A DNA stretch of 64,000 bases from Obrimoposthia wandeli (lineage: Eukaryota), in the NCBI GenBank assembly GCA_977020255.1, contig CDROCS010006690.1, positions 1 to 64,000 on the forward strand, written 5' to 3'. Below, in pieces: positions 1 through 20,592 of the stretch. The notes beneath the pieces were generated by a model. The model ran no database searches. It worked only from the letters and a program-made list of their open reading frames with translations, and was not told where the DNA came from. How positions within the stretch are numbered: the first letter of the stretch is position 1; each line of letters opens with the position of its first letter. The position numbers and the translations under genes were made by a program.

Positions 1-1052
1 GCAACATTCTATTAAAATATTGTGATTTAAATGGGCAACACAATTTTATTAAAATATTGTGATTTAAAGTGGGCAACACAATTCTATTAAAATAATGTGA
101 TTTAAAATGGGCAACACAATTCTATTAATATATTGTGATTTCAAATGCAAACAATTCCCACTAAAATATTGTAGTTAAAATGCTATCCAACCTCGTCGTC
201 TCACCGATTTGATCTTGAATATCCGAGATGGTCGCTTGCTTTTGTGGGATATCGAGCTTATGTAGACCTAGTCGACCGATTTGAGATTTGTGAGCTAAGT
301 TGGTTGATTTGAGATTTGCAAGCGAAATTGTCTGTTTTGAGGATTTGAGCTAAATTGTCTGATTTGAGATTTGCGAGCTAAATTGTCTGTTTGAGATTTG
401 CGAGCTAAATTGTCTGATTTGAGAGATTTGCGAGCTAAATTGTCTGATTTGAGGATTCAATTTCCTTTCCTTTAAGCAATTAATTTCAGGCAATCTAAAT
501 TATAGACTAAAATGAAATCGCCCAAATTCATACCTACTGCTTCTCCTCAGTCGATTGTCTATTCCGCTTTGTTTGTGTGTTCCTTCTCTTTTGTAATTGG
601 TTTGGGCAGCGACTTTTATAGTCGATTTTCAATCAGTAATGTCGGCAGTGTGCGTGTTTGTTTTCTTGGCGACTTTTATAGTCGATTGTCAATCAGCAAT
701 GTCGGGCAGCTGAAATATAATTCTGAGCGTAAAGTCTGACGGCTTCAGAAAATTCAATTAATTCACGGCACGAAAATGTGCTTACCGTTTCGCCGATTGA
801 CGTTTTCCAGTTCTGTTTTCTTTTAATTGCCAACATTTTTTGTTGCACTTTTGGGTTAATTAATCTAACTTTTATACATTTCACATTATACACGACCTTC
901 GTGGTCCTCTAATTTTACCCTAAATTCCACTAATTTCAATTCTAAAACTAAAATTAATATTTAATTTAATTTTCAACCTTGCTTTCCAAGGATTTTTTAT
1001 TTTAGTATTTAATCGGCTAAAATATTTAATTTCTTAATTCTCAAACCTAACA
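1..1052 (-). repeat. 3' LTR, partial (U3 end)
   Basis: Collinear with about 21900-22973, including the end of the 38-bp array and the 29-bp repeats. Similarity stops exactly after ...aaacctaaca (TGTTAGGTTT on minus). Confidence 0.95.
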
Positions 1053-1334
1053 TACCTCGGGGTTCCAAAAAAGTTACGTCCCGGAACGTATCGATTTTAC
1101 TTAAACAAGCCTCTGGCTGTTGATTTTAGGTTCATCCCTACAAAATCAATCATTCAACTTCAACAAACATGCCCCAAAAACAAAATTTCTCAAAATCCCG
1201 GTTTTTAGTGGGAAACATAATGTATAATTTGGAGCAAGTCTCAGACTATACATTATTATCTATACACAAACTACATGCATAACCAAGGATTAGGAAGGAA
1301 AGAAGGAGGAAAGGATCAATTGTCATAAGTTAGG

Positions 1335-1850
1335 TCAATTGTAATTGTCGGCTGGTTCCGACTGGCCAGGTAGCGCAGGACCTGCTCCAGGGGTAGGTCG
1401 GGAAAGGACGGACTGTCCCCGTTGTACAGGTGTAGTTGTTGGCTCCGGGTTAGGTGTGGGCTCTCGACAAACAGGTCGAAATACTGCCCGTTCATCGCGT
1501 GATTTTCTATCCAGAGACGTCTGGCCTGGAACCACAGTGGCAGTCTCGACTAGACCGCCATCTCTCGCGGATGCCCAGTTGTGTGTCGCGCCGGCGTGCG
1601 AGACACGCAGCCAGCGTGGCAATGTATGCCGCAATGCAGCTGGCAGGCGATCGGGTGCCCTTGTGCCTTCCACGGCTCTGGAGCGTCCATTTGCCAAAGG
1701 GTGTCCGGCACAGTGGACATGTGATATGGCCGGGGTCGAGCCTTGGCCCACAAATAGAAGGCACTCCTCGTGAAATTTGTGACGGCAGCCGACAGGGGAT
1801 GCTGATACCGCCCAAATCTTCTCCATACATACAGAGCACTTCATCTGCAT
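1335..1850 (-). pseudogene. RING-H2 protein 3 (frameshifted)
   Basis: MKCSVCMEKI...GCRHKFHEECL, then WAKARP and ITCPLCRTPF in adjacent frames. Confidence 0.72.
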
Positions 1851-2161
1851 AAGAAAATAACTCCTTTCAATTTGGGGTTCACCGTTCTCATCGTTAATTT
1901 AAATTTTAATTTCAAAACGAGTCCTTAGTTATCTAATCCTACCGAGTTTTGTTTCGATTTTAGGCATGTTTACGCATTCACACTAAGCATAAAATTGTCT
2001 TTTTTAGAAATTCAGTATAATAATTACAATTTCAGTTAAACATCATACATAAAAATGGTAATGGTCAATTTACAGTTCACAAGATTATATAATTATGATT
2101 ACAATTATGGTAGCTAATTTATCGCGGTATGCCATACACAGGGTAGTTCATGATGTCACGT

Positions 2162-2491
2162 TCAAGTCAGAAAGTTACCTTCGATTATTGTTGGGGATTG
2201 GGCTGGCCTGTGCTTCGCTCCTCCACGCAGAACGAGCACCAGCAATCGCAGATGGTTTTTCAGCAGTGTACGATGGGTACCACTGCTTGGAGGCTGTCCT
2301 GGTTGTACACGTAGTGTACTGAGAAGGTCGCTCTGCACATCGGGCAGGTTGGGAAGTCGAGGGATTGTTGCTGTTGGCAATGGGGATCCACGTCTCGAGG
2401 CATTCGACGTGGAAGAGAGGTGGTCGCAGTTGTTGGGCTTGGTGTAGAAGTCCACGATGCTCTCGTAGCAGATGGAACATTCTCCAGACAT
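2162..2491 (-). pseudogene. RING-H2 protein 2 (frameshifted)
   Basis: MSGECSICYESIVDFYTKPNNCDH continues in the neighbouring frame as LFHVECLETWIP. Confidence 0.7.
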
Positions 2492-2499
2492 TACTGTGG

Positions 2500-2849
2500 G
2501 AGGTTGATGTTGAATTTGGGCTCGATTGAGGACTGGTGGTTGTGTGATGTTTACACAAAGTGGTCGGATTTTGTCGATCTGACAAACAGTAATAACACCA
2601 ACACTCTCCGAAATTCTTCCAACAGAATACCACCTGTACATATACATCCTCTTGGTCGGGTTCTAACATGATGAATCTTGCGAATTGTCTTCTGCATACA
2701 GGGCAACAAGGGTATGTTGGATGTCCGAACTGTCCATAAGTTCTGATCCATGTCGATAAACATTCCTCGTGGTGTAAATGGTTTGCAGTTTCGGGTCTTG
2801 TTCTTCGTTCGGTTAGATCTTCCAAACATATTGGGCATTCTTCGGACAT
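2500..2849 (-). CDS. RING-H2 protein 1
   Basis: MSEECPICLEDL...HLHHEECLSTWI...CPVCRRQF. The 3' end is uncertain because of frameshifts. Confidence 0.75.
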
Positions 2850-2972
2850 TCTAAATACATGATGATGATTAATTTCTACATGAGTTTTATATATTTCTAC
2901 TATTTGTACAATCACTTCTAGATATTTCTACATATTTCACACACTAATTTATCTACAACCTCCTCTGACTTA

Positions 2973-4195
2973 TCATATCTTGATTGGAGGCGGAGGTAAG
3001 TCTAATTCCACTTCCTCCATGATGGGTGTGTCACAGCATCGCAATCCTTCGCATTTTCGTCGTACTCTTGGGCATACTTGACTGCCTTTTACGCACACGA
3101 TTGTCAATAGAACCACTGCTGTTGACACTACGGCCATTCCAATTAGGGCATTGACCGCCGTTATTCCGCTGTCTGATGATTTATAATCATACTTCATTTT
3201 GTTGTTTGTCGGTTCGAATGACATTTCCATGGGTTTTGATCGGTTTCCATGTATTATGTCCGATTTTCTAAAAATTCGGGGATTTGGGTGTTTTGTTTCT
3301 GATGGAACAGGTATTATTATTTTGGATTGGAAATGATGTTTGGGATCTAGTGGGATCGTTCCCCTCACTCTTGTCCTCTTAATAATTGTACTTTGGTTTC
3401 TGGGATTTAGCTCTTTTTCTTTCGCTTCTGTCTTTGTTCTGATCACTGTCGGTTTTTTGGAATGGCGTTTACTTTCGATTACCTTTGCCTTCTTTTTTGA
3501 CTAGGATTGGTCTTTTTGGGAATGATTTTCTGGGTTTGATACTTATACCGTATCTACGAAATCGACGGTTCTGGTATCTTAGAGTTATGTAGAATATTTC
3601 ACCTGTTATTATCATGATTATGGTCGAGGTCTCTGTAGTATTACTGGAAATTCGATTACACAGACATTCTGTGTTAAAATGTGGTACTAACATTTGGCTT
3701 TGGATTTCGAATCTGATTCCGCCATCTGGGTTGGGACACATTACTGTTACTCTGTCGGTCTCAGCAATCTGAAAAATATCCTAACGGAATTCCATACGGC
3801 TTTACGTCGTCAACCTGTGATTATACTCCTGTCGACAATTTTCCAGAAGCGCTCATCTCTAGGTAATATTGATGACTGTGTTCGATACTTTGGATAATCA
3901 GCTTCCTCTTTGATATTGTTATCCGTAGGTATAACACTCTTTCATGATACAATAATATTAAATTGTAAACGGGTGTATATTGGTCGATTTTTATTCTGAC
4001 CTGTCGGATGACATACAATTTCTGATCGATATTATCAGTTGCTGACGTCTGTAGATGAATGTCTACTACGTGATTTGTTTTTAGAAGGGGGATTTCTATG
4101 TATACTGCCCGTATTACGTCTTATCTCCATTTACTGATCATGATCTCATAACTAGCCTTGGTAGTGGTGATTTGTATGATCAGCATGATTCCTAT
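2973..4195 (-). pseudogene. Putative type I membrane protein, broken by stops and frameshifts
   Basis: Signal-like IIGIMLIIQITTTKA near 4150-4190. Fragments 3821-4018, 3469-3741 and 2973-3446 follow, the last with TM ALIGMAVVSTAVVLLTIVCV and a PPPP tail. Confidence 0.45.
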
Positions 4196-5105
4196 GATCG
4201 TTCGATTCTAAACTCAGGAACTTCAATGAAACAAGTCAAATTACTCATATAGTACGGTCTTTCCTCGATGTGTTCATATATCGTTGGCTGGTACTCTGGT
4301 GCTGGTTCATCTAAAAATGGTGGTCTTGGTATAATTGTGTTGAATTTTTGTAAGTTCATTTGACCTGTTCGTCTTGCGAGATCATGCCGTTTCTTTTTGA
4401 TCTCAATTCTAACTTTGTACAACAAAACAAGATGAGTAATATTAATATTATAAATCCAATGATCAGTGCGAGTATTGGATTAATCAATTCTAGAATACCG
4501 TAACGTACTGCTGGTATTCCTTTACTCTTGATGGTTAATATTTTAAATTTGTGTGCACTTTGGTTGGATATGTCACTGAAAGTACTATTTTAGTTTGTCC
4601 AAATGTGTAGTCTTCACATGTGACAACATCAATTCCATAATGTCTATTAAGTGTTTTCATTTCGGTCAGCTGGAACTATACATATCCGTCCTGGACATCC
4701 TTTTACACACATGATCATTACAGCTTTACTGTAGGATGTCTTGATTATTTCTAGGGTGTTGTCTAGATTTCTCAAATGTAGATTATATTCGGATAATGTC
4801 ATCATTTCAGCTTTACTGGTCGGCATGGCTTGTAGTACCAATCCAATTACTACTCCATAAATCAATCCTTGTGCAACGGTGCACAGGGCCTTGACTGACC
4901 TTTTGCAAAGGGTTTTAATTATCAATCGTTTGAGAGATATCTGTTTCTGATTAGATCGTTTTGTTATCTGTCGTTGTTTTGACATCTCCTCGATTCCATT
5001 TCTTCCGATAATTAACTGTACCGGTTTACCTTGTATCGTCAACTTTCCGAATCCATTTTTGGCGGACAAGCATGTTTTATGTCCTTCCATCGTTTCAATT
5101 ATCAC
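4192..5105 (-). pseudogene. Putative type I membrane protein, broken by frameshifts
   Basis: Signal-like GLIYGVVIGLVLQAMPTSKA. A frame shift near 4665 gives an ectodomain ending in TM ILALIIGFIILILLILFCC (about 4430-4490). ORF 4192-4425 is a basic and Tyr/Pro-rich tail. Confidence 0.5.
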
Positions 5106-7702
5106 TCTCTTACTTCATACTCACGTGTTTTGATGACATCGCCATCGAATATATACGTTGGTCCTTTTGTATCAGCATCTTTTTGTATTTCCTTTACAAC
5201 TCGTTTTCTTCGCTTGCATCCAGCGAATGTTGTTGATATTCGGTCAAGTGTGCGCTGTCGGTCAGCTTCGTAATCTATTCGAAATTGATTCAGTATTCTG
5301 TTTTGTGGGTAAAATATCGCTTCATTTACTATATTGTCCTCGATCCTTTCGTCTAGATACACAAGCACTTTGTTCGTTGGTCCATTTGGTCTTTTCATCT
5401 TTACAAACTGAAATCTTTTACTGTCGGTTCTCATAGATCGAAGACATTTTCGGATGATCCACACATCAATTAGTCCTAACAACACTAATAGCATCATCAG
5501 TGCCGGTGTATGGTACTGTGTGGTGTAGTTGTGGATTTCGTTGAACCAGGAACTATTTCCGTGGTTGGAGCCTATCTCCTGTGCTCCCGTTATCGGCATT
5601 AAACAGCTTAACAAGCCTATCGCTAGCAATCTTTGGTATTGAAAGCTGGGCACTGTTGTTGTAGCTTCATTTGTTTCTCGTTGTTGTTTCCTCTTTTCGG
5701 TGTATTTCTCTATTTCTCGAACGAGTAACGGTTTGAATTCCGTATTTGGTCTATTCTGTTTGATGTAGACCATCGCTTCTTCTGGCGTGTGACCATGGTA
5801 CTCTACCAACAAGGATACACCTATGGTAGGCGCTAACATTGTACCTTTTTTCTGATATATCAGAACGCCGTTTCCTTCTGTGACTTCAGCTTGGATGGTT
5901 TGAGTCAATTTCGTCAGATGTTGTTGTGCATCGTTTATCTCTCGATTGGAAGCATGTATGTATCGAGTGGTGTCATCTTCAGTATTTTGACATAGACTAA
6001 TTATCTCGTTTCCGACTTCGACAATGTTGATTACTCGGTTGATACTGTGGAACTTTAATCCAGCAGTGTCTATATCTCCTGGATGACATAAAAATACTTT
6101 TGGCATTATCTGTGTAATTTTGTCGACTCCGGCTAAAAATAACCCGGTCAATGATAATGCTTGGAGGAAATTCTTTTCCTTTGGATCCTCAGGAATGTCG
6201 TCCATCCGTCTTTGTTCTTGCAACAGAAGTTGGTAATTTGCCAACTGTCCCAAAAAATTAAGATTTGGGTTTGCAATACTTCTTCTCTCCTGTAGGTATT
6301 TTAGCGCTTCTAGTACCTGCATTCGTCTAGTCTTTATTAGGTATGCTAATACTAGAGTTGCTGATCGAGAAATTCCTTTCTGACAATGTACTAACACTTT
6401 TCCTTGGTTCCGGAGTTCTCTGTGAAGTATTTCGTTTGTTTCTACAAACCATTCGAGAAGATTAGCGTCCATTGAGTCTTTTACTCTTAATGTCATAGCT
6501 CTGATTGTCTGATATTGTGATTTATGACTCATTGTAACGTTGATCACGTATGTTATCCCTTGTTCCAACAGTTTCTTTTCATCTGTTGCATCTTCCACAT
6601 TTCCGAGGTATAACTTATTTGGAATGATCTCACTCATTGGTGGCATTAATTCTGACTCTTCAAGTTTTAGTCTTTCTAATCTCTTCTCTATCTGTTCGTC
6701 GATGTTAGTTAGTTTTGCCAGTTTCTTTCCTCTCAGCATTCGTATTGCTGGAGAGGTATTCATCTTTGTCTCTGATGTCTGTTCCTTTGTTGAGTCTTCT
6801 TCCGACTCGGTCTCTTCTGCAGATTTAATTCGTCTTTCTTGTATATTCTGTTTCACGAATTCTATGTTTTGTCTTTTTCTGCTCTCTTTAGCGAATTCAA
6901 CCTCCATGGTTCTTCCGAATCGCTCTATTATGTTATCTTCGGATTCTGTTGATTCTGTATCGTTACTTTCCGGTTCGCTGTCTTCACTAGACTCGCTCGA
7001 AGGGTATTCTGGTATGTCTGTCTGAACTGAAATTAATGAAGGTGTTAGAATAATTGGATTGATTTCCCCTTCGTATTTGTGAATCGGATACGGTATTACA
7101 CTATCTTTAAGTATCTCAACTTGGAACTGTGCTCCATAGCACATGACAATTGTTTCCAATTTACCCATGATGGACAATCCATCAAAATAGGTAACATTCA
7201 GCTTAGATATCGGTGTCTTCGCATAATTAATTAAGTTTACTCGTATCTCAGTTGATGACGGCCATCGATGTTTTAGTAAAATTATAATTTCGTCGTTTAT
7301 CGATGTAATTACACTTGGTGCGGATGATACTATTTCGGCATGATATTTTGGCTGGTTTGAAGTTGTTACTTGTTCTCGGATCATATTGATTCTTTGTGGT
7401 TTTTTATTTTTAGCTTCCCACTTCCGGTATCCGCTGTCAATGCGTAATTCTGCCGTTGCTTTGATGATTTTATTGTTAGTCACTTCCGGATGGGTTGGCG
7501 AATGGAATCCTTCTATTACGCTCAACCTTACAGATACTTCCGTTTGATCTGTGTCTAACCGGTGAGATTCTGGTATACAACATACAATTGTCTTTCCATC
7601 AAAGTATTTGGTGTCCATCTGACAAATTATCTTTTCAGTGTCAGCGTCGATTAATTGGACTCTCATGATATCTCTTTTCCCATGTGAATTACGTAATACC
7701 AT
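5102..7702 (-). CDS. 866-aa accessory ORF: YFDG repeats, acidic linker, dual-specificity phosphatase, pseudophosphatase, signal/TM segments
   Basis: KLYLGN...ITYVINVT...D...VLVHCQKGISRSATLVLAYL...RRSIANPNLNFLGQL at 6230-6637. A second DSP-like copy at 5700-6122 has IYQKKGTMLA in place of HCxxGxSRS. Confidence 0.9.
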   Translation of the reverse strand: MVLRNSHGKRDIMRVQLIDADTEKIICQMDTKYFDGKTIVCCIPESHRLDTDQTEVSVRLSVIEGFHSPTHPEVTNNKIIKATAELRIDSGYRKWEAKNKKPQRINMIREQVTTSNQPKYHAEIVSSAPSVITSINDEIIILLKHRWPSSTEIRVNLINYAKTPISKLNVTYFDGLSIMGKLETIVMCYGAQFQVEILKDSVIPYPIHKYEGEINPIILTPSLISVQTDIPEYPSSESSEDSEPESNDTESTESEDNIIERFGRTMEVEFAKESRKRQNIEFVKQNIQERRIKSAEETESEEDSTKEQTSETKMNTSPAIRMLRGKKLAKLTNIDEQIEKRLERLKLEESELMPPMSEIIPNKLYLGNVEDATDEKKLLEQGITYVINVTMSHKSQYQTIRAMTLRVKDSMDANLLEWFVETNEILHRELRNQGKVLVHCQKGISRSATLVLAYLIKTRRMQVLEALKYLQERRSIANPNLNFLGQLANYQLLLQEQRRMDDIPEDPKEKNFLQALSLTGLFLAGVDKITQIMPKVFLCHPGDIDTAGLKFHSINRVINIVEVGNEIISLCQNTEDDTTRYIHASNREINDAQQHLTKLTQTIQAEVTEGNGVLIYQKKGTMLAPTIGVSLLVEYHGHTPEEAMVYIKQNRPNTEFKPLLVREIEKYTEKRKQQRETNEATTTVPSFQYQRLLAIGLLSCLMPITGAQEIGSNHGNSSWFNEIHNYTTQYHTPALMMLLVLLGLIDVWIIRKCLRSMRTDSKRFQFVKMKRPNGPTNKVLVYLDERIEDNIVNEAIFYPQNRILNQFRIDYEADRQRTLDRISTTFAGCKRRKRVVKEIQKDADTKGPTYIFDGDVIKTREYEVRE

Positions 7703-7887
7703 TATTACATCGTGGTATTCTTGTTTGAGTCTTTTGGTGTACCATGCAGTATGTGACCACCGGCCGGTTCTTTTTCTTCCTGACTGGCTAGTCCTGCTTC
7801 AGTACTGTCATAGTTCTGCCATGCAACTATGTTTGGTGTCAATGTGATTTCGATTATCACTTTCTCAGTCGTAAACACATTGGAATT

Positions 7888-9396
7888 TTAATAAAGCGCT
7901 GCGACTAGTGTATTCCCGTCATAGTATGACACTCTAAGTTCGCACAGAAATTCGTTTGTCAGTGCATCTTTCACAATGACTTCTTTCGCCACATCTGTTG
8001 GTTGTGTTTTTTCAAAAACAACTATTATCTCTTCGTCTTCTTCTAATATCTCTTGTGGTGCGATGTGTCGGATTACTTCCTTTTCCTCTTGGTACTTCAT
8101 TCTGAGCATACCAATTCTCGCTGGTTTTTTCTCGCTACCACTCGTCATCATGTTTATGTAGTTCTGATCACTTACCATTCGTGTAAGTTTAATGGTATTG
8201 GTATTCGATTTCGATTTCTGTGATCTTAACTCATATCGTGACGCATTATCTTTATTTGGTACTAATTTGCATCGATTTGCATGTACAATCATCGGTTCCT
8301 TGTTCCGATTCTCTTCGTTGATTACTTTCAAATTTGTTGAGGTTGTCTGGATCACCTTGTATGGTCCTTTGTATGGTCTATGAAGTTTAAACGATAGACC
8401 TGGTTCGATGACTGGATAAAATATCATCACTTGATCTCCGACTCTAAATTCATGCGGTTTTGCTTTTTTGTCGTATTGTTCCTTGTAACCTTCTTGATTG
8501 AATTTCAACTTCAATCCGGCTTTGGTCCAAGCATCTTGTAACCTTTCCTTCATGACGACAATGTATTGTTCAGTTTCTAGGTACTGAGATGTTGGCTCGG
8601 TCCACTCCAGATCCATTGGCATATTGTTCTGTCTGAGATACATCAGATAGAATGGTGTGTGACCCGTCGCCTCTCGAACTGAATTCCTGTAAGCATATAA
8701 ACATGAAGGTAAATATTTATCCCAATCCTCTTGCTTGTCTGAGCAATAGGATTGTACCATCATACATAAAGTTTTATTAAACCTTTCCACCAGACCATCT
8801 GTCTGTGGGTGATATGGTGAAGTTTGTAACTTCATGATTCCGAATATCTTCGATACTGCTTTTATGACTTCTCCAGTGAAGTTCTTACCTTGATCCGTTA
8901 ACAATTTTCTAGGCACTCCGTATCGAAATATTATCTCTTCTACTAAGATTTGTGCTATTGTTTCAGCCTTCTGGTTCTGCATGGGATATGCTTCTACCCA
9001 TCTCGTCATGTAATCCGTAAATACTATGACATACTTGTTTCCTTTACTTGATTCTCTCAATGGTCCCAATATATCCATCGCTGTGAATTCCATTGGTGCC
9101 AAGGGAACTGGCATTGGTTTCAGTGGAACTTTAGTACGAGTTCCGGTGTCTTTTCTGGTTAAACATACTTTACATTGTTTACACCATTGTTTTATGTCGT
9201 CTTCCATACCATCCCAATGGTACTTCTCTTTGATTCTGGCTATTGTCTTTCGCCCTGACAGATGTCCTCCTAGTGTTCCGTCGTGATACTGGATCATCAC
9301 TGCTGTTTTCAATGACTTCGGAATTACTACTACTATCTTTCCGACATTATTGACAATATACAAGATGCCTTCTTTTATCGAGTATTTTTTCGTCAT
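7888..9396 (-). CDS. pol: Integrase with C-terminal extension
   Basis: HHCC (HDGTLGGH...CKQC), DILGP, TDQGKNF, YHPQTDGLVERFN and GPY/F (YKGPYKV). Confidence 0.95.
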   Translation of the reverse strand: MTKKYSIKEGILYIVNNVGKIVVVIPKSLKTAVMIQYHDGTLGGHLSGRKTIARIKEKYHWDGMEDDIKQWCKQCKVCLTRKDTGTRTKVPLKPMPVPLAPMEFTAMDILGPLRESSKGNKYVIVFTDYMTRWVEAYPMQNQKAETIAQILVEEIIFRYGVPRKLLTDQGKNFTGEVIKAVSKIFGIMKLQTSPYHPQTDGLVERFNKTLCMMVQSYCSDKQEDWDKYLPSCLYAYRNSVREATGHTPFYLMYLRQNNMPMDLEWTEPTSQYLETEQYIVVMKERLQDAWTKAGLKLKFNQEGYKEQYDKKAKPHEFRVGDQVMIFYPVIEPGLSFKLHRPYKGPYKVIQTTSTNLKVINEENRNKEPMIVHANRCKLVPNKDNASRYELRSQKSKSNTNTIKLTRMVSDQNYINMMTSGSEKKPARIGMLRMKYQEEKEVIRHIAPQEILEEDEEIIVVFEKTQPTDVAKEVIVKDALTNEFLCELRVSYYDGNTLVAALY

Positions 9397-10412
9397 TTCA
9401 TCATTTCATCTCCTTTCACCAACAATTCTTTGATTAGACTCAGTTCTTCATCTTCTTTCTGTTCTTTGATGATCTCTTTGTCTATTTTACCCGTCTTTAG
9501 CAAAATCGTCAGTAGATTTGCTTCTCCTTTTTGGTCATTGGTTTCATCTTCTTCTGGAATGATGTTTCCTTTTTCATCTACATTTGTCAATCTCGATAAA
9601 CAATCTGCGTTGCCATTCGACTTTCCGGTTCTATAACGGATTTCTAGATCGAATTCGGCCAATTTTAGAAACCATCTGTTTAATCTACTCATCTCATCTC
9701 TATGTTTATACAAGAACTGTAGTGGTTTGTGATCTGTATATAGGAATACTTTTTGTCCTAGCAAGTAGTGTCTGTACTGTCTACATGAATACACTATGGC
9801 TAGACATTCCTTTTCGATAACAGAGTATCCTCTTTCGGCTCTGTTTAATCCTCTACTCGCATACGCGATGACGTGTTCTCTTCCTTCGTCATCCTCTTGT
9901 CCCAATACTGCTCCTACAGCATAGTTACTTGCATCTGTCATAAGTATGAATTGTCGGTTTATATCTGGAAACGCTAATATTGGTGCTTTTATCAGTCTTT
10001 CTTTTAAATGCTCGAACGCTTGTTGGGCTTCTTCTCCCCATATGAACTTCTCATCTTTTCTCGTCAACTTTCTCAATGGTGTTGCTATATCTGAAAAATG
10101 TTCAACAAATCGTCTATAATAATTCGCCAGACCTAAAAAACTCTGTATCTCCTTAACAGTCTTTGGCGCTAAATGCGCTTTTACTTTCTCGATCTTTGCT
10201 GGATCAGGTCGAATGCCTTCTTTCGATACTATATGTCCTAAAAATGTTACTCGCTCTTTAGCCCATTCGCATTTTGTAGGTTTAACTTTTAATTTAGCGT
10301 TTTCCAGTCTTTTAAATACAACTTCAAGATTTTTTAAATGTTCTTCGAACGTTTTCGAAAATATTATTATGTCATCGATATAAACCATCGTGTTTGCACG
10401 ATGCGAGTACAA
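9393..10412 (-). CDS. pol: Reverse transcriptase C-terminus and RNase H (frameshifted from upstream ORF)
   Basis: VYIDDIIIFS, FLGHIVS, SFLGLANYYRRFV, TDASNYAVGAVL, EKECLAIV, TDHKPL, NADCLSR. Confidence 0.95.
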   Translation of the reverse strand: MYSHRANTMVYIDDIIIFSKTFEEHLKNLEVVFKRLENAKLKVKPTKCEWAKERVTFLGHIVSKEGIRPDPAKIEKVKAHLAPKTVKEIQSFLGLANYYRRFVEHFSDIATPLRKLTRKDEKFIWGEEAQQAFEHLKERLIKAPILAFPDINRQFILMTDASNYAVGAVLGQEDDEGREHVIAYASRGLNRAERGYSVIEKECLAIVYSCRQYRHYLLGQKVFLYTDHKPLQFLYKHRDEMSRLNRWFLKLAEFDLEIRYRTGKSNGNADCLSRLTNVDEKGNIIPEEDETNDQKGEANLLTILLKTGKIDKEIIKEQKEDEELSLIKELLVKGDEMMK

Positions 10413-13400
10413 AATTCATGCAACGCTGAAATGTTGCTGGAGCTCCTGTCAGTCCGAATGGCATCTTTTCGCATTCGTATAATCCATCTCCGCAGGAAAA
10501 GGCTGTTTTGTGTTTATCCTCTTCCTCTATCTCGATTTGCCAGTATCCACTCTGCAAATCTAATGTTGTAAAATAATCTGAATTACCCAATTTATCGAGC
10601 ATCTCTTCGATTCTAGGTAATGGATACACATCTTTTCTTGTGATCTTGTTCAGTTCTCTGAAATCTATACAGAATCTCATTTTCCCATCCTTCTTTTTTA
10701 CCAACACCACAGGTGCTGAGAATGGCAAAAAACTCGGTCTAATTACTCCTGTTTTAGACATATCTTCAATCTGACTTTTTACTTCATCTTGTAACTGTAA
10801 TGGTACTCGATATGGTCTTCTTCTGACTACTTTGTCTTTTGTCAGTGGTATTGTATGTTTTATGACAGGTGTTTCTCCTATGTCATATGGATTTTTTGCA
10901 ATTACTTTCGGAAATTTATGTATTAGATCAAGTAATTGTTTCTTTTCTCTAGTTGTCAGTCTTTCTGATTGGATTACTATTTCTTCGTAATCATTCGTAT
11001 CTTTATCGAGTTTCATAGTGCATACAGTGGAATTCTCCATCTGTGCTATCTTTCCCAACCTCATTCCTCTGTATAATAGGATGTCATTGTTGGTTGTATT
11101 CATCAGTCTAACTGGTATTTTGTGGTTTTCGATCAGGCATACTGTACTCACAACTGGTAATTCGTATTTCTCTATGAAATCTCGTGATGGTTCGAACACA
11201 ACTGGTCCTTTATCTTCTGATAATGTGTGACCTTGAATAAGAAATTGCGATCTTTTACCGATTTTTATAGGATTCTCTATAATTACATCAATTTGGTTTA
11301 TTTGTCTGTTTGATGTGCTATCCTTCAATCTTGGATCTTGTAAATCAATACTTATCCCTTTAAGTTGTGATAGTACATCCATTCCTAAAATTGTAGGTTC
11401 AGGACATTCTTTCATGATTCTAACTGGTATAGTGATCGTATTACGTCCAATTATAAATGTACATGGTAATATTCCCGTTACTTTTACAGGGTCTCCATTG
11501 ACCGATACCAAGAATTCGTCTGGTTCTGCCATTGTTCGTTTCTGTTCCTCTGTCAAACAGTCTTCACTTACTATCGAAGCTACAGCACCTGTATCAATTA
11601 AGGCTTTTACTCTTAAATTATTTACTCTAATGATAGCTGCTGGTCGCTGTGCTCCATTTATGTTTCCCATATGGTATATTGTATTTATCGAATTATTACA
11701 CTCTGTCAGTCCACTTCCTATGTTTGGATAGTGAAATCTAATGTTTCTCACTTGTCGATCTATTATTCTTCGACAAATCGGACATGATACCATTTCATTC
11801 GCACATCTCCGACATGTTCTTACATGTCCGCATGGTAGAAAGGCAACTTCTATTTTGTTGACCATGCAAACTGCGCATTCCGGATCTTCTAGTACGTATT
11901 CTAGTTCATTTATGTACTCTTTCTCTTTTGTTTCAATTGTACTGTCATCTTTATCTCGCAGTAATTCAAAAATCGATCCGTATCCGTTTCGCGTAGTTTT
12001 TATTTTTAATTCTACCAATTCTCTGATTCTTTCTGCTTCTTTTGGATATAACCTTCTCACGAATGACACTACCGGTGTGTCTTGTTGAGCCAAAATCTCT
12101 TTCCGTGTGATTTGGTATTCGATTATACATTCGGTTTTCTGTTCTTTTTGCTTTATTTTGTTTTTAAAAGTACAAAATTCGCAAAATTCATGATGTAAAA
12201 TTTTCTTAGGTAGCTCAAGAGTATATCTGTCGATAATTCGTTCTTTTTTACACTTGTGGCATTTAATTACGTCTTTACCATCCTTTTTTATAGCAAAAAG
12301 TCCCTTTTTTGCCAATTTTTTAAGTCTTGGGTCTTCGAAGGTTATTTCTCGATACTGTTCGTCACATTCGTTCACTTCTCGCATAACTTCGAATATATCT
12401 TCAATTCGACTATTCGTTATTACTCTACCTGTTATTAGAGCTGATTCTCCTTTCGGAATCCCGTCACTGTAATCGAAATCGGGTGCTTTTCCCGTTTGGA
12501 TTTCTGGTACGTTTGACGTTTTCAGTTTCAAAAGAAATGGACAATTTGGTGCATCTCTTTTATGACGTCTCATTGGGTTTTCATTCTGTTCCCATTCTCT
12601 AAACTTTACTCTACACCATACGCATCGTACTACTATCTCCTGACCATAACTGCTTGTCGCGTTTAACATTTCTAAACCTGATCTTGCCATTTTACGTGCC
12701 ATTCCTTTTGAATAGTACTGTTCTAATATATTTCGTCTCTTTCTCTCGAATCTCATGGGATCCCTTTCTGACAGATTCACATATGTTATTTTTCTCCTCG
12801 TCATCTCTTGTGGTCCGAGGTTTACGTTTTTGTAGTGAAGTATCGACTTTACTAGCGCTTCCTGTTTTTTGTCTTGGTACGAATTTCCCATACGGAACGT
12901 AGTGTATTTTTCCTTTTCGACTATAGGTCCTCTCAACATTTTTATCTCTCTCACTGAACTGTCATTCTTATAACTCTTGTTGTTTGGTAGTATAATTATT
13001 CCTTCAAACATTCGTATTACGTCCATCCCAATCATGACTGGACTACCGCAATCTGTGAATATTCTAGCATTTAATTGTAATGCTCTTCCATCGATATTCA
13101 ATGAACATTTCAGTGTTCCTTCCGACACTACATCTGTACCATTCACGTTAACAAATGTCTGTTTTCTAGGACATACTTCTCTTAATTCTTTTGATGACAA
13201 GATTTCTTTACTTAGTACTGATACTGCTGATCCGGTATCAACTTCGGCAAGATATTCTCTTCCGTTCAATGTTACTGCTACTTGTGGTGGAGCATTTGGA
13301 TTCTCATTTGATATTCTAGATTTCAGAATTCTTCTGGAATTATCTTTTTTGTCTTTTTCCTCTGCTTGTGGAATTTCACTGTAGCTCACTTTAGGCCATC

Positions 13401-16400
13401 TTATCATTAAGATGCCTCTCTTGAATTTTTCCTTCTCTTCCTTCAATTCCTTCATTGGATATAGGTTTAACGCCACTTCTTCCTTGTCTGGTAATGGAAT
13501 CTTTGGTTTTCCTGGTATCTTTGCATATACTTCTGGACTATCATTATCGTCGTCGTTGTCGTCTCGATAGTTTCTTGGTTCTCGCATCATGGTTCTCGTT
13601 TGGTGTTGTTCCTTCTTGAGGGCTCGCAACTCGTTCTCGTGATGATGATGCATTAGATATTTTGCTAAAAATGGAAAACATCCAATTATAAGTTGCCAGG
13701 TGATTCCGGTTATCCTGTATAAACTATACGTAGACAACACCTGGGCTATAATTACCTGCACAAATTTAATTATAACATAAATACCTATGATACCCGAAAA
13801 TAATTGTCCTAAGACAAGGAATTTCCCCCACATCTTTCTAAGTGTCTGATGTGCTGCTTCCTTGAAATGACTTGGCGATAATAACATATCGAAATTCGCA
13901 TATCTCGCTCCTGGCGGTAATGCTCGATGTACCATCTCCGTAAGTACTCTGGCTCTTCTTACTGGAAACATTATTTCGTTCCACGCCGCTTTTAAATCTT
14001 TTTCATTGTACAATCCTGCGTTCTCCATATTTTCCATCGCTTGGAATTTCATTTTACCTTTAAGATTCGTCATTCTTATCATCGCTGGGGTTGTCGTTGG
14101 CTTCCGATCAGGTAACGTTATCCATAGATTATTCGTCATCTGATATTCAGGTGCCATTATATTAGAGCAGCTGATTTCTTTAGTTGGAGTGTCTTTTGGA
14201 AGTAACATTCTCGTGATTGGTTCAACAAAAAGATCTTTTAAATTATACGTTACTGCCAATTCGCTCGTACATCGATCTGTTTTTCTCAACTGTACCTCTA
14301 CTTTATTACACTTGTAAGTATATAATACTTCTCCCATGGTTTTAGCAAATACTCCTTCATCCAAGGGTAATAATGGTGCTACCATGTCTGGATTCGTAAT
14401 AGCTAATGCTAATTTTGTTCTTACGATCTCTTTGTTTAACTGGCAATCTCTTTCGATCATCATCCGATATAACTGTTCCATTTGCATCAATCCTTTATGA
14501 TAATAGAAATCAATTTTATTATTAAAATACGTGTGTAGCTGCATATCTTTTGGTTTTAGCTTGGTTTCTGCCAATGCTATTGCTTCTTTAGACAAAACTA
14601 TTCCTGGATAGTTTGTAGTACTAACAGTCATTCCGCATCGCGCTTTGTTTCTCTTTTTAATAAATATCAATCCTTCTTCTATTGATGTTGCCATTAACAG
14701 TGTAGGTGTTTTTGTCATTGGAATTGGTCTTGTTTCATTTAGCAATCCTTTTCCTACTTTATTATACAGGAACCCTTCTCCATCTTTATTATACAGGAAT
14801 CCTTTTATTTTATTAAAGCTAATCTCTTTCAAAAATACTAAAGAGCATTGCTTCGGATTTATGTTATACACAATTGTGGATTCACCTGTAAAACAAGATG
14901 CATCTGTCATTTTACATTCTGGATACTTCATCATTAGTTGTGTCTTTTTATCAAAATTGGCGGTCCATGTTTTTAATTCGATTTTGTAAGTTACATCCAT
15001 TACTAACTCAGATACTTTGGTTGCACTCACGTTTTTTGTTTCTCCGTCACAAGATCCATCAGCCCATCGTTGTCCGACTCTCGTGACTGTTTCGTATCGT
15101 CTCACTCCAATTTTTACTTCAGGTTTGTAATTCTTGTCTACCTCTATCGTTCCCGTTCGAAATGCATCTTCGCAATCTCTCGGCAAAACCTTATGTGCCT
15201 TGTACGGTGTGGTAGGTGTGATTTCTGACATAAAACTTCTATGGCCACAATAGAATTCGTGATAACTTGAATGGATTGAACATTCTTTCACTTCTACTTG
15301 TACTTTATCAACATCCTGATACACAAAGTAGTTTTCAACACCTTGAACTTCTAGTTTTGACGGTTGTGATTCTGGACAGTCTTCGCTGTCAAGCAGTGAA
15401 TACGTTTGTCCCATCTTTGGTATGCTACAGTCATATGCTATCAATCCTGATGCCTGTTGCATTCCCATGAACATTACTAACATCATCATCATCATTGTTG
15501 TGGACATATTTGGTTGATTGTTTCTCTCTTTCGGACGGTATTGTTTATTTTCCTTTTGACGATTCTCATGACATTGTTCGTCATCGTCTTCATTCATTTC
15601 CACAATGGTTTTAGCGTAGTCACTTAATTTTGCCCAACCTCCATTTTCGTCAATTCGTCTCTGTAATACATTCTCGATCAAATACATCGCTTCATTTATT
15701 CCTTGTTTGACTTCGTGAGGTTGGCTCGTTCGTTCCGTCAATTGGAAACATAGATATGTGATCGCTGTAATTAACTTTTTATTTGTAGTCTGGTTTCCAC
15801 ATAGTCTCGCTAAAACTTCACCGTCATAAAATCTATCTATCGATGCATGGTATACATGATTCGCGGTCATTCTCTTTACTGCAGACATCTGTGATCTGAC
15901 TGCTTTAGTCAAATTGTCTGTTATATCGGTTGTTTCATCTCTGTACATTTTAAACAACTTCGGCTTCACTTGCCTGAGAATTCCCGTAAGTATATCTTTA
16001 CTACTTGGAGTTTCCGAATTCATATCACCTCTGATATCTTCATTCCTCTCTGCACTATACTGCTCTAATGACGCTGCTAACTGTCCAATACTTAGATGTC
16101 TCTCTTCATCAGTTTGTGGTGCTGTTAGAACATTTCGTAATATACTTTCGCCTTTTCTAGGTCTTCCAGGTCCTCTTCGAAAATACTGATACTCAGTTTG
16201 ATTCTCTCCTGGATCATACGTTTCACCATTATACTGTATCTCTTGACTTGGTCCTTCTTCATGGCCAATCTCTTCACTTTGTCGCATCATTTGCTCTGCT
16301 TGTCTATCTTTGTATGCGGCATGCCAAATTGGTGAATCCAAATCTACAATCTCGGAGACTTCGTCTTCTCCTACTAGTTGGGTTACGGTTTCGTTTTGTC

Positions 16401-16641
16401 TCACTTGGTTAGCTGTATCCGTGACTTCATCTTGTCTGATTGGAATTATATCTGGTTCTGGTGGCACCTCGACCACTGGAGTTGTCAACTCATTTTCTAA
16501 ATTCATGTCTTGTAATTCAGTTACGTACGGTTCTGGTGTGGATGTCTTGTTCCAAGCTTCAGCTACATCATTATCTCCGCTTTCACTTGAACTGTCTAAA
16601 ATTTCTATAGGCGTTTTTATCATTTCTAACGCAGAATTCAA
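10372..16641 (-). CDS. 2089-aa polyprotein: AT-hook, Bcl-2-like, Env, protease 1, BIR x2, RING, protease 2, RT N-terminus
   Basis: Motifs in order: PGRPRK, IDENGGW, signal peptide+LIAYDC, VDTGS/IGMD, CX2CX16HX6C, C3HC4, IDTGA/LGMD, RFCIDFRELN, LDLQSGYWQI, MPFGL. Confidence 0.93.
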   Translation of the reverse strand: MNSALEMIKTPIEILDSSSESGDNDVAEAWNKTSTPEPYVTELQDMNLENELTTPVVEVPPEPDIIPIRQDEVTDTANQVRQNETVTQLVGEDEVSEIVDLDSPIWHAAYKDRQAEQMMRQSEEIGHEEGPSQEIQYNGETYDPGENQTEYQYFRRGPGRPRKGESILRNVLTAPQTDEERHLSIGQLAASLEQYSAERNEDIRGDMNSETPSSKDILTGILRQVKPKLFKMYRDETTDITDNLTKAVRSQMSAVKRMTANHVYHASIDRFYDGEVLARLCGNQTTNKKLITAITYLCFQLTERTSQPHEVKQGINEAMYLIENVLQRRIDENGGWAKLSDYAKTIVEMNEDDDEQCHENRQKENKQYRPKERNNQPNMSTTMMMMMLVMFMGMQQASGLIAYDCSIPKMGQTYSLLDSEDCPESQPSKLEVQGVENYFVYQDVDKVQVEVKECSIHSSYHEFYCGHRSFMSEITPTTPYKAHKVLPRDCEDAFRTGTIEVDKNYKPEVKIGVRRYETVTRVGQRWADGSCDGETKNVSATKVSELVMDVTYKIELKTWTANFDKKTQLMMKYPECKMTDASCFTGESTIVYNINPKQCSLVFLKEISFNKIKGFLYNKDGEGFLYNKVGKGLLNETRPIPMTKTPTLLMATSIEEGLIFIKKRNKARCGMTVSTTNYPGIVLSKEAIALAETKLKPKDMQLHTYFNNKIDFYYHKGLMQMEQLYRMMIERDCQLNKEIVRTKLALAITNPDMVAPLLPLDEGVFAKTMGEVLYTYKCNKVEVQLRKTDRCTSELAVTYNLKDLFVEPITRMLLPKDTPTKEISCSNIMAPEYQMTNNLWITLPDRKPTTTPAMIRMTNLKGKMKFQAMENMENAGLYNEKDLKAAWNEIMFPVRRARVLTEMVHRALPPGARYANFDMLLSPSHFKEAAHQTLRKMWGKFLVLGQLFSGIIGIYVIIKFVQVIIAQVLSTYSLYRITGITWQLIIGCFPFLAKYLMHHHHENELRALKKEQHQTRTMMREPRNYRDDNDDDNDSPEVYAKIPGKPKIPLPDKEEVALNLYPMKELKEEKEKFKRGILMIRWPKVSYSEIPQAEEKDKKDNSRRILKSRISNENPNAPPQVAVTLNGREYLAEVDTGSAVSVLSKEILSSKELREVCPRKQTFVNVNGTDVVSEGTLKCSLNIDGRALQLNARIFTDCGSPVMIGMDVIRMFEGIIILPNNKSYKNDSSVREIKMLRGPIVEKEKYTTFRMGNSYQDKKQEALVKSILHYKNVNLGPQEMTRRKITYVNLSERDPMRFERKRRNILEQYYSKGMARKMARSGLEMLNATSSYGQEIVVRCVWCRVKFREWEQNENPMRRHKRDAPNCPFLLKLKTSNVPEIQTGKAPDFDYSDGIPKGESALITGRVITNSRIEDIFEVMREVNECDEQYREITFEDPRLKKLAKKGLFAIKKDGKDVIKCHKCKKERIIDRYTLELPKKILHHEFCEFCTFKNKIKQKEQKTECIIEYQITRKEILAQQDTPVVSFVRRLYPKEAERIRELVELKIKTTRNGYGSIFELLRDKDDSTIETKEKEYINELEYVLEDPECAVCMVNKIEVAFLPCGHVRTCRRCANEMVSCPICRRIIDRQVRNIRFHYPNIGSGLTECNNSINTIYHMGNINGAQRPAAIIRVNNLRVKALIDTGAVASIVSEDCLTEEQKRTMAEPDEFLVSVNGDPVKVTGILPCTFIIGRNTITIPVRIMKECPEPTILGMDVLSQLKGISIDLQDPRLKDSTSNRQINQIDVIIENPIKIGKRSQFLIQGHTLSEDKGPVVFEPSRDFIEKYELPVVSTVCLIENHKIPVRLMNTTNNDILLYRGMRLGKIAQMENSTVCTMKLDKDTNDYEEIVIQSERLTTREKKQLLDLIHKFPKVIAKNPYDIGETPVIKHTIPLTKDKVVRRRPYRVPLQLQDEVKSQIEDMSKTGVIRPSFLPFSAPVVLVKKKDGKMRFCIDFRELNKITRKDVYPLPRIEEMLDKLGNSDYFTTLDLQSGYWQIEIEEEDKHKTAFSCGDGLYECEKMPFGLTGAPATFQRCMNFVLASCKHDGLYR
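11350..11650 (-). other. Aspartic protease 2 (canonical pol position)
   Basis: ALIDTGAVASIV ... TILGMD, followed by the usual Gypsy spacer and RT. Confidence 0.9.
11761..11878 (-). other. IAP-type C3HC4 RING finger
   Basis: CAVCMVNKIEVAFLPCGHVRTCRRCANEMVSCPICRRII. Confidence 0.92.
12170..12760 (-). other. BIR domain plus degenerate second BIR
   Basis: CVWC-x16-H-x6-C (exact BIR zinc spacing, with W...P..H...PNCPF). The second is CHKC-x18-H-x6-C, preceded by LAKKGLF. Confidence 0.85.
13004..13290 (-). other. Aspartic protease 1
   Basis: LAEVDTGSAVSVL ... VMIGMD. Confidence 0.85.
13650..15507 (-). other. env: Envelope glycoprotein, chuvirus-G/gB-like (class III fusogen-like)
   Basis: Signal peptide MSTTMMMMMLVMFMGMQQASG then LIAYDC. 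The Cys-rich ectodomain includes GEVLYTYKCNKVEV, CTSELAV and EPITR, has N-glycosylation sequons, and ends in a hydrophobic C-terminal anchor. Confidence 0.8.
15610..16005 (-). other. Bcl-2-like domain within polyprotein
   Basis: BH2-like LQRRIDENGGWAKLSDY at about 15610-15665. Upstream helices fall at BH1-, BH3- and BH4-like spacing, but these matches are weak. Confidence 0.6.
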
Positions 16642-16759
16642 TATCTCGGTTAATCCTTCATTATCTACTAACTCTTGACGTCCTACAGTGATGACATCAA
16701 TTTTTCCTCTAATTCATTTCCTATCGGATATCCAAACTCGACTGGTACGTCCTCATCAT

Positions 16760-18364
16760 CTAGTGATCTCCTTTATAATGGAACAACATATTCATTCCAT
16801 CAATTTCAAGTTTCTCAGCCAACTTTTTCCGAATCGTTTTCATTGTTTGATACACGTTAAGTTTTTCATGTATTATCTGTCCGGAAATTAATCGAAGTGA
16901 AATTTTCATCGTTCCTTTTTGGTTTGATCTCTGTACATAACGACCATAACCTTTCAGTAGTCCTCGGGGTACTTCTTTGTAACCCAAGTTATCATGACTA
17001 TGTTTAACCAATTCTGCACGCACTTCTTCCAATCGGTGCACTTTAATTGTTTGCAATTTGGCCAGAACTTCTGGAGCTTCACTCGTTTCATCTAACGGTT
17101 GATTTAACGTCTCCTTAGCTTCACTAATTATCTTTTTTACATTTTCCATACTCGTAGCATTTCTTGCTGCTTCTACATGATCAGTCATAGGTTGTGCGTT
17201 ACACGTTTTCTCTATTGGTGTCTCATACGCTTCTAATATTCTATTCATTAAATCATTCATCTCTTCTCTCGAATGTAGACTTTTCTCTTGTTTCGACAAC
17301 GTAGATGAATTTGCCATCTTTGTATGTGGTGAATCTTTAATTATTCCCAACATTCGTTCAAATTTACTATCACTATCTTCAAAATCTATTTCGCGTCGAA
17401 GCTCGGTCTCGCGATTCCTATCACTGTCATCGTTTACATAACTAAAATTTCCTTTCGGTTTCGGCGAACTCTCACGACTATTTGTCTTGTCGACATTATT
17501 ATTATTATATCTACCAGAATTATTATATCTCTCAGCTCCTTGCTGTCCTACGTAATTATTGTATCTCTCAGCTCCTTGCTGTCTATCTGCATAGTTATTA
17601 TATCTACCTGGTGACTGTTGTCTATCTGTATACTGATTATTCAGTCTCCATGGCTGTGGAGTATATCCACCACCTCTATTCCATGGCGGAGGTGAATTAT
17701 ATCCTCTATAATTATTTCCAAAATTATTATTACCGAAATTATTATTTCCAAATCTGTTAGCTCCGAACTCTTTACTTCTCGTACAATCTCTCGAATAGTG
17801 ACCCATTTGTTTACACGTGTAACACATTATTCTCCCTCGAATATCTATCTTATTTTGTTCATCTTCGAACTGTACTCGACGACTATTTTGTCTATTATCA
17901 TAGCGTCCTCTAAAATCATTTCTTCGGAAATTCGATTCAAAACCGCTTCCTCGATTATTGAATCTTCCGTCGCTATTTCCTGTATTATTTCCAAATCGAG
18001 AGTCACTTCGCTCTCCTCTGTTGGCGTTATAATTCCTATCGTCTCCTCTCCAAGGTTGGCGATTTCCTGAATTATCTCTATTAAATCTATTCCTGGAATC
18101 ATCTCTATTTCTATTCCACGAATCATTATTATTTCTACCTCTTGAATCATCTCGATTCCTGTTCCAAGACTCACTATTATTTCTACCTCTCGAATCATCT
18201 CGATTCCTACTTCGGAAATTATCTCTATTTCCGTTACTGGATTCATCTACTTTTTCAAACTTATTTTGTCCATAATTTCGATTCTGAAAATTACTCGGTT
18301 CTGTTTTATTCACGAAGACCTTTGTCTTATCGTCGTCACCTGCAGTCATTGCGTAGATTGCCAA
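16760..18364 (-). CDS. gag: Gag C-terminal part: N/R/G-rich repeats, CCHC zinc knuckle, C-terminal ubiquitin-like domain
   Basis: CYTCKQMGHYSRDC at 17783-17824. It overlaps the previous ORF by 19 nt, and one extra A in the A5 run would fuse them. Confidence 0.85.
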   Translation of the reverse strand: MAIYAMTAGDDDKTKVFVNKTEPSNFQNRNYGQNKFEKVDESSNGNRDNFRSRNRDDSRGRNNSESWNRNRDDSRGRNNNDSWNRNRDDSRNRFNRDNSGNRQPWRGDDRNYNANRGERSDSRFGNNTGNSDGRFNNRGSGFESNFRRNDFRGRYDNRQNSRRVQFEDEQNKIDIRGRIMCYTCKQMGHYSRDCTRSKEFGANRFGNNNFGNNNFGNNYRGYNSPPPWNRGGGYTPQPWRLNNQYTDRQQSPGRYNNYADRQQGAERYNNYVGQQGAERYNNSGRYNNNNVDKTNSRESSPKPKGNFSYVNDDSDRNRETELRREIDFEDSDSKFERMLGIIKDSPHTKMANSSTLSKQEKSLHSREEMNDLMNRILEAYETPIEKTCNAQPMTDHVEAARNATSMENVKKIISEAKETLNQPLDETSEAPEVLAKLQTIKVHRLEEVRAELVKHSHDNLGYKEVPRGLLKGYGRYVQRSNQKGTMKISLRLISGQIIHEKLNVYQTMKTIRKKLAEKLEIDGMNMLFHYKGDH

Positions 18365-19158
18365 TGCTGCATTATTATATTTTTCTCAATCTCTCTCGCC
18401 TTTCGTACGGCGTTATCAAAATCATTTGTATCCGATACTGCTAATAACACTTTAATATCCTTTTTCAATCCTCCTCTAAATATATCTAACAAGACCTCTG
18501 CCATTTCATTTTGGTTCCGGTCATTTTCCGCTGCTTGTGCTTCTTGAGGTACAGGAATACCGTCCTGATTTCTCATTATTCTTCTTGGGTACGCTCTTGC
18601 GGCCAAGGTTCTCAAAACATACGCGTATTCATTCACGCCTTCATCATGTTTCTGTTTCCGTTCTCTCATGAGTCGCTTATTTACTTTGGCTAAGTCTCCT
18701 AATACCAATTTTCCAATAAAAGCATTTTCCAACGTTGGCCAGTCTAAACGTTCTGCTTCTGTCAAATGTTTATACACTTCAAGTGCTAATCCGGTTAAAT
18801 GTGCCTGTACTCTGACACATTTTTCTTTATCGTTCCATCCTTGAACATCTGCACAACTCGAATATTCTGCGAGGAAGTCACAAATACTTTCCTCATCTCC
18901 TTTAAATTTTGTAATCTGCAATGATCCTGAAAAATTGGGTCTCAACGTCGCATTTAAAGCTTGTGCCAACTGCTCGGCATTCATGTCACCTACATTATTT
19001 CCTGCATTAATATCTGCTTGAGCTCCTGGGTGAGCCATATCTTCAATTATATCGTCTTCAACTATTTCTTCAATATTATTCAACGGAACTTCCTCAATCA
19101 CTACTGGATTGGCAATTTCAAATTCTTCTGGGTCTATGTCACCAAATAATTCAGTCAA
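18346..19158 (-). CDS. gag: Gag, capsid-like N-terminal part
   Basis: Retrotransposon-gag pattern KFKGDEESICDFLAEY...WNDKEKC...LTGLALEVY...WPTLENAF...RKQKHDEGVNEYAYVLRTLA...FRGGLK. First ATG at 19038. The frame is open up to about 19390. Confidence 0.85.
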   Translation of the reverse strand: MTELFGDIDPEEFEIANPVVIEEVPLNNIEEIVEDDIIEDMAHPGAQADINAGNNVGDMNAEQLAQALNATLRPNFSGSLQITKFKGDEESICDFLAEYSSCADVQGWNDKEKCVRVQAHLTGLALEVYKHLTEAERLDWPTLENAFIGKLVLGDLAKVNKRLMRERKQKHDEGVNEYAYVLRTLAARAYPRRIMRNQDGIPVPQEAQAAENDRNQNEMAEVLLDIFRGGLKKDIKVLLAVSDTNDFDNAVRKAREIEKNIIMQHWQSTQ

Positions 19159-20065: not shown

Positions 20066-20325
20066 TTCTGAAACTTATTCTCAATTGTCTATATTCTTCT
20101 GCTGAAACTTATTCTCAATTTATCTGAAACTTATTCTCAATTTATCTGCAACTTATTCTCAATATCTGAAACTTATTCTTAATATCTGAAACTTATTCTT
20201 AATATCTGTAACTTATTCTTAATATCTGTACTTATTCTATTTACCTGAAACTTATTCTCAATTATCTGAAACTTATCCGAACTTATTCTATTTACCTGAA
20301 ACTTATTCTCAATTATCTGGAACTT
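20066..20325. repeat. About 20-24-bp imperfect tandem repeat in the leader
   Basis: The core ctgaaacttattctcaat recurs about 11 times. Confidence 0.85.
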
Positions 20326-20586: not shown

Positions 20587-20592
20587 TTTATT
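20587..20592 (-). promoter_or_regulatory. Candidate polyadenylation signal in LTR
   Basis: AATAAA on minus, about 200 nt before the LTR 3' end. Confidence 0.5.

Follow-up and report, generated by a model that had tools for sequence, protein, structure and literature searches.

The closest described counterparts of the element reported here are the giant Gypsy elements of planarians, Burro and GYPSM1. In the available text of PMC6431247 and PMC13465017 these elements exceed 30 kb and encode a giant single polyprotein that starts with gag, has an env-like fusion glycoprotein inserted in the same frame after gag and before pol, and carries BIR and RING domains; they reach a scale of thousands of copies, with tandem repeats, in flatworm hosts. 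Burro1 is described as helping planarian stem cells survive via its BIR-RING region (as cited in the accessible part of PMC13465017), while BURRO1 is derepressed on PIWI loss (PMC8532177, in the portion available). If a related element expresses three further RING genes separately, transposon counter-defence would reach beyond the blocking of cell death to the targeted degradation of proteins, as DNA viruses are known to practise it, and the element would have its own tools to destroy host defence proteins.

The window analysed here, a stretch of 64,000 nucleotides, holds on the minus strand of positions 1-22973 a single LTR element of ~23 kb, which is composed as follows.

20384..22973, minus strand: 5′ LTR of ~2.6 kb with TG...CA ends and a 38-nt tandem array, matching window 1-1052
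20357..20375, minus strand: primer-binding site, TGG followed by 16 nt that match host tRNA-Met(CAT) genes at their 3′ end
2973..19038, minus strand: giant polyprotein region, recognised by Pfam and by long open frames in other copies, fragmented in the window copy
2550..2849, minus strand: RING1 gene (usually 99 aa in the family; position of the 3′ end approximate; broken in the window copy), RING-H2 and a second four-Cys cluster
2186..2491, minus strand: RING2 gene (usually 101 aa in the family; position of the 3′ end approximate; broken in the window copy), a paralogue of RING1
1316..1844, minus strand: RING3 gene (165-179 aa in the family; broken in the window copy), RING-H2, second Cys cluster and helical tail, hypervariable
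1..1052, minus strand: 3′ LTR, cut off by the window edge; its TATA boxes are those of the 5′ LTR, and a donor-like site lies at 533

The element is a giant, env-bearing, high-copy Gypsy retroelement of Burro-like type. Two LTRs (93.7% identical over 604 columns), a tRNA primer site and the order protease-RT-RNase H-integrase identify it as Ty3/Gypsy. According to Pfam, the polyprotein runs from gag with a CCHC knuckle through a weak BCL2-like stretch, a Monjiviricetes-type fusion glycoprotein, protease, BIR, C3HC4 RING, protease, RT, RNase H and integrase to a dual-specificity phosphatase and membrane segments. The fusion glycoprotein (PF24664, E 1.9e-94) lies between gag and pol in a frame common to protease and RT, both BIR (PF00653) and RING (PF13920) lie inside the polyprotein, and the BCL2-like stretch (PF00452) is found at the expected place before env with an E of 0.047, under the cut-off, and with no match to a solved structure. 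Among the 150 phosphatase matches listed, the longest open frames span 4,633 and 4,002 codons, in keeping with a single polyprotein of ~5,000 residues; the frame of ~16 kb reaches the stop at 2973 in 2 of the 11 copies mapped. At least 150 uninterrupted RING1 matches with at least 97% identity are present in the genome (150 of the 150 scored).

With Burro and GYPSM1 the element thus shares the gag-led giant polyprotein, the in-frame glycoprotein, BIR and RING, the copy-number scale with tandem repeats and a flatworm-type host, as far as the available text of PMC6431247 and PMC13465017 describes them, whereas at 23 kb it is shorter. MATH, ankyrin, ubiquitin-like and dUTPase-like domains gave no Pfam match in the scanned frames, the published dUTPase call for Burro being a profile comparison, and unlike the frame described for Burro the present one runs past the integrase through the phosphatase. 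Furthermore, three stand-alone RING-H2 genes, of which the available Burro descriptions make no mention, lie behind the stop here; the Burro RING is described within the BIR-RING (B-IAP) region in the accessible part of PMC13465017. As those four domains were not found in the scanned frames and the assignment follows domain architecture, we use the label "Burro-like" only; the element probably belongs with the Burro group and works like Burro elements. Burro hosts are triclads; the present host is placed by its mitochondrial code, and the element is compared with Burro by its domain description. A literature search returned no report of a 3′ stand-alone RING-H2 cassette or of a phosphatase in such an element, whereby the 2026 Burro1 paper, Grohme 2018 and figures and supplements outside its coverage may bear on novelty.

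The dual-specificity phosphatase (PF00782, two stretches) and the membrane segments occupy window 5102-7702 on the minus strand, after the integrase and within the polyprotein, and are not among the Burro domains described in the text available. An 86-aa membrane ORF before RING1 was considered as a fourth accessory gene and rejected, as it proved to be where the polyprotein ends. From the primer site to gag (19039-20356, minus strand; 1.3-1.6 kb) the sequence consists largely of tandem repeats, and this interval is ATG-free in the window and in all three other copies in which gag was located.

A sequence-only reading of the window had described three tandem RING-H2 ORFs, each with an acceptor immediately ahead of its ATG, and had proposed small E3 ligases expressed, like complex-retrovirus accessory genes, by alternative 3′ splice sites or by spliced-leader trans-splicing. 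In complex retroviruses, 3′ accessory genes are reached by alternative acceptors from a 5′ donor, and the lentiviral proteins Vif, Vpr, Vpx and Vpu serve host ligases as adaptors and are not themselves RING proteins. The present element resembles complex and foamy-like endogenous retroviruses in having small genes that follow the main frames and precede the 3′ LTR (PMC6431247 for the foamy-like elements, in the part available), but has a Metaviridae-type pol order and an invertebrate host. Inspection of the window copy confirmed the minus-strand ATGs at 2849, 2491 and 1844, with a YAG ending 1, 2 and 0 nt upstream, respectively, and a C-x2-C within 5 residues of each start. The full C3H2C3 pattern, by contrast, is present in none of the three window frames: in RING1 it fails near codon 22 and the frame overruns the usual family end, RING2 goes out of frame near codon 25 and RING3 near codon 30, breaks that had been overlooked by this reading, which also left the element unnamed. 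Since 15 of the 17 indel events relative to the nearest copy (99.3% alike) fall in or beside runs of equal bases, their placement suggests that the breaks may well be long-read assembly errors.

The integrity of the RING genes was assessed in 87 other copies, 47 of them picked by likeness to the RING region and 40 via the phosphatase domain. Starts were recognised by the N-terminal motif in 74 copies for RING1, 65 for RING2 and 63 for RING3; the remaining 13, 22 and 24 copies are truncated, deleted or unrecognisable and stand outside the counts. The full C3H2C3 pattern follows 51/74, 42/65 and 49/63 of these starts and is incomplete after 23, 23 and 14, respectively, and Pfam zf-RING_2 scores above its cut-off for all three genes. 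All three starts occur in the same order in each of the 52 copies having them. Median dN/dS values of 0.36 for RING1 (260/378 pairs), 0.16 for RING2 (313/351) and 0.19 for RING3 (295/561), taken from non-independent pairs with a synonymous difference of 0.08-0.6, indicate that all three genes are under purifying selection. Several copies chosen via the phosphatase (L114, L122, L126, L128, L129, L138, L143, L144 and L150) align piecewise or stop inside the RING cassette, which suggests deletions or replaced segments there.

All three products carry a second Cys cluster after the RING. RING1 and RING2 share 40% identity over 93 aa with invariant zinc ligands, and the other paralogue pairs 27-30%. 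RING3 is the most variable: even where RING1 and RING2 remain above 70% identical, two copies can have as little as 48% identity in RING3, and its divergence begins at its ATG. From their family membership the products are predicted to be zinc-binding RING E3 ligases. Homologue searches returned nothing for RING2, for the phosphatase region or for the RING3 alignment, and the best matches in a representative-sequence search cover the RING alone. Structure models were poor, with a pLDDT of 50 for RING2 and 58 for RING3. The nearest language-model clusters contain small RING proteins of large DNA viruses (83-196 aa, scores 0.87-0.94); this likeness is a lead only, as the best sequence matches are to the RING alone and no alignment spans the second Cys cluster. 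Two possible origins were rejected: a host family of intronless RING genes shows only RING-level likeness (25-42% over 35-63 residues), and the element's own BIR-RING shows none.

To rank the acceptors, a host model was built from myosin introns (24 kept out of 32 inferred, with 8 junctions lacking a candidate) and applied to the 1,827 AG sites on the sense strand of the element, with the following outcome for the sites next to the three starts.

2851..2880, minus strand: RING1 acceptor-like site, TAG ending at 2851, rank 63 of 1,827 (moderate)
2494..2520, minus strand: RING2 acceptor-like site, C-rich, CAG ending at 2494, rank 407 of 1,827 (weak)
1845..1870, minus strand: RING3 acceptor, CAG abutting the ATG, rank 1 of 1,827

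The RING2 site scores -3.7, near the bottom of the host range of -6.2 to 11.1. After two RING1 starts mis-sorted as RING2 had been moved out, a YAG was found before 73/74 RING1, 64/65 RING2 and 63/63 RING3 starts. At RING3 the junction reads CAG/ATG in every one of these 63 starts and in 41/41 distinct contexts; over 53 distinct regions all three acceptor columns are invariant, compared with 5 of 97 other columns, and of the third codon positions following the ATG 0/19 are invariant. A branch-like TNAY is found in 41/42 RING3 contexts, a count made without a shuffle control, and in only 8/26 RING2 contexts. Around RING1 and RING2, conservation of the acceptors is uninformative because the spacers are too conserved: 74/122 and 28/57 other columns are as constant as the acceptors, so that their constancy equals background. 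The AG is lost in one copy whose RING2 is complete, and the two positions just before the RING2 ATG vary (10/37 differ). A YAG 0-2 nt before an ATG is found at 50 of 461 ATGs on the element's sense strand (rate 0.11), which would put the chance of three out of three at ~0.0013 if the genes were independent, a value that overstates significance because they are paralogues. In the host intronless RING genes, taken as a control, the arrangement occurs in 0/13 distinct start contexts from 28 loci.

Model score and conservation clearly mark the RING3 acceptor as a real, selected splice site, whereas the RING1 and RING2 acceptors are plausible candidates. Of the proposal that an acceptor precedes each ATG, the part concerning RING3 thus holds across copies; for RING1 and RING2 it is plausible only, given their ranks and conservation not above that of the spacers. 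The parallel to complex retroviruses stands as regards the position of the genes behind the polyprotein stop and before the 3′ LTR, purifying selection and the RING3 acceptor, and the RING genes form a real accessory cassette of a giant retroelement. A non-coding block at window 1995-2150 (minus strand), 150-306 nt before RING3, is also highly conserved and is possibly an RNA structure or a splicing or export element.

Candidate donors for these acceptors were found in the LTR leader and behind the primer-binding site.

22447..22540, minus strand: TATA box and ATG-free leader with a putative donor-like site TAG/GTAAGG at 22452, rank 15 of 1,111 GT sites
20239..20298, minus strand: second candidate donors, CAG/GTAAAT at 20295 and 20244, in repeats behind the primer-binding site

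The donor behind the primer-binding site is present in the window and in 4 of 6 stretches bearing that site (8 fetched) and missing in 2 of the 6. Of 57 LTRs, 41 could be anchored, and these form 16 unrelated leader types. Over the 16 types, the best donor 40-200 nt after the TATA box beats shuffled sequences (Fisher p = 0.006), in a scored test done with a changed anchor and window after a strict GTRAG test that was not significant (4/20 types, shuffle rate 0.11). Individually, 5 of the 16 types have a significant donor (p < 0.05) and 11 do not, including that of the window (p = 0.16) and a type represented by 10 LTRs in which no good donor occurs; no ATG precedes the best donor in any of the 16. 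Downstream of the TATA box, the 41 LTRs (L173-L202, L111-L150) divide into at least 16 unrelated sequence types, with the first part of the LTR staying alignable. As for 3′ signals, AATAAA is nearly absent before RING1 (1/52 copies) and RING2 (0/52) and at chance level before RING3 (25/52 vs 24.4 expected), while A(A/T)TAAA 15-115 nt before RING3 is somewhat above chance (48/52 vs 34.2 expected). Four sequencing runs from one sample of unrecorded kind gave even, DNA-like coverage of the element over window 460-19430; none of the 15 joints listed (379 more exist) has intron-type ends, which has no bearing either way on splicing.

On balance we favour expression of all three RING genes by cis-splicing to alternative acceptors. 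Lying behind a frame of ~16 kb, the genes would be out of reach of ribosomes on the genomic RNA and would hence need mRNAs of their own. Cis-splicing would join one of the three acceptors to a short, ATG-free 5′ exon derived either from the LTR leader or from the sequence that closely follows the primer-binding site, whereby each RING ATG would become the first start of a nested mRNA terminating in the 3′ LTR. The products, judged by their family, would ubiquitinate host proteins that restrict the element, with RING3 as the fast-changing one. Position behind the polyprotein stop, selection and the RING3 acceptor at its ATG are direct observations; the donor enrichment in the leaders, the scarcity of AATAAA before RING1 and RING2 and the poor upkeep of a TATA-like box before RING1 count for cis-splicing of all three, and the moderate and weak acceptors of RING1 and RING2 with their background-level conservation, the few branch-like motifs and the one lost AG at RING2, the loss of the donor behind the primer site in some stretches, the basis of the host model in 24 myosin introns, the many leaders without a significant donor and the A(A/T)TAAA excess before RING3 count against it.

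The last two of these opposing points would fit spliced-leader trans-splicing, in which the same acceptors are used and the cassette is resolved like an operon, a reading we consider unlikely. The host has a flatworm-type mitochondrial code, and flatworms including a planarian do trans-splice, with UUNYAG-type acceptors often common to cis-splicing (PMC12582326, in its available text). The terminal AUG of the parasitic-flatworm leader described in the same part of that source would be in frame with RING3 but not with RING1 or RING2, and the two variable bases before the RING2 ATG would produce a start-stop or an out-of-frame start; the near absence of AATAAA before RING1 and RING2 and the donor enrichment in the element's own leaders likewise argue against it. 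The ranks and background-level conservation of the RING1 and RING2 acceptors would in turn fit a different arrangement, quite improbable in our estimate, in which RING3 alone is spliced, while RING1 and RING2, preceded by AGs of no significance, depend on an internal promoter and on reinitiation or leaky scanning. In the window's subfamily a TATA-like box stands 35-45 nt ahead of the RING1 ATG, and both this box and the conserved non-coding spacer before RING1 would suit such a promoter. Against it, the box is kept in only 9/33 phosphatase-chosen copies and altered (TATGTAAA or similar) in 24/33, it would give a leader of only ~10 nt, and a YAG so close to an ATG has the background rate given above. 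An internal TATA in the RING2-RING3 spacer likewise gained no support as a general promoter, being present in 31/60.

That the RING genes are captured, decaying passengers without function might be read from their breakage in the window copy and from the incomplete patterns in other copies. This reading is very improbable and largely refuted by the selection tests, with dN/dS well under 1 for all three genes; the uninterrupted RING1 matches and the invariant zinc ligands between RING1 and RING2 speak against it as well, and in the window copy the polyprotein is likewise broken. The cassette supplies three exact junction coordinates and three small proteins for testing, and it could serve to learn whether host trans-splicing is exploited by a retroelement.

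At its end RING3 carries a further short feature.

1328..1345, minus strand: SUMO-interaction-like motif ITIDLT

A tail of this kind (xIDLT or xVDLT) occurs in 23 of 35 full-length RING3 forms and is missing in 12. It resembles the SUMO-binding peptide VIDLT of PIAS2 (PMC9071424, in the part available). Measured against the SIM core (V/I/L)-x-(V/I/L)-(V/I/L) or its mirror, as given in the available text of PMC3174244, it is usually one residue off, with Thr at the first core position. The combination of a RING with a SUMO-interaction-like motif is shared with herpesvirus ICP0 and with cellular STUbLs such as RNF4 (PMC3174244, same part), and suggests that RING3 may be a SUMO-targeted ligase. 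In contrast to ICP0 and RNF4, RING3 is a RING-H2 protein with one C-terminal motif that is absent in the 12 forms and off the strict four-residue core. When the RING3 tail was modelled in complex with a host SUMO exon of 58 residues, the score of 0.13 against a mark of 0.34 gave no verdict, the SUMO fragment being incomplete. A further reading, which we regard as doubtful, is that the retroelement supplies E3 ligases of its own from spliced mRNAs like those of retroviruses, with RING3 as a SUMO-targeted analogue of ICP0 stripping SUMO-dependent silencing proteins from the element; if this were true, the many RING3 variants would record an arms race with the host.

The host itself was characterised from its multi-copy COX1 (3 loci), which reads AAA as Asn, ATA as Ile, AGR as Ser and TGA as Trp, the flatworm/echinoderm code; we take its COX1 protein to be flatworm-like. 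The assembly also contains stop-free COX1 genes of bacterial type, together with a single COX1 from another animal whose mitochondrial code differs (L151-L156). The host intronless RING genes form a large, often tandem family of ~300-330 aa with an N-terminal RING and a C-terminal Cys-rich domain (L051-L080; at least 150 matches over the cut-off, 150 of the 150 scored). One true SUMO gene was seen at 2 places, and many degenerate ubiquitin-like units occur in longer frames apart from true polyubiquitin (L217-L220). Elsewhere in the window, an intronless 365-aa ORF at 29503-30600 (minus strand) has no Pfam match and starts with MGCCKSK, which resembles a lipid-anchor signal; a broken Tc1/mariner-like transposase lies at 37203-38335 (minus strand), and fragments of another LTR element with an integrase match lie at 45787-48370 (plus strand).
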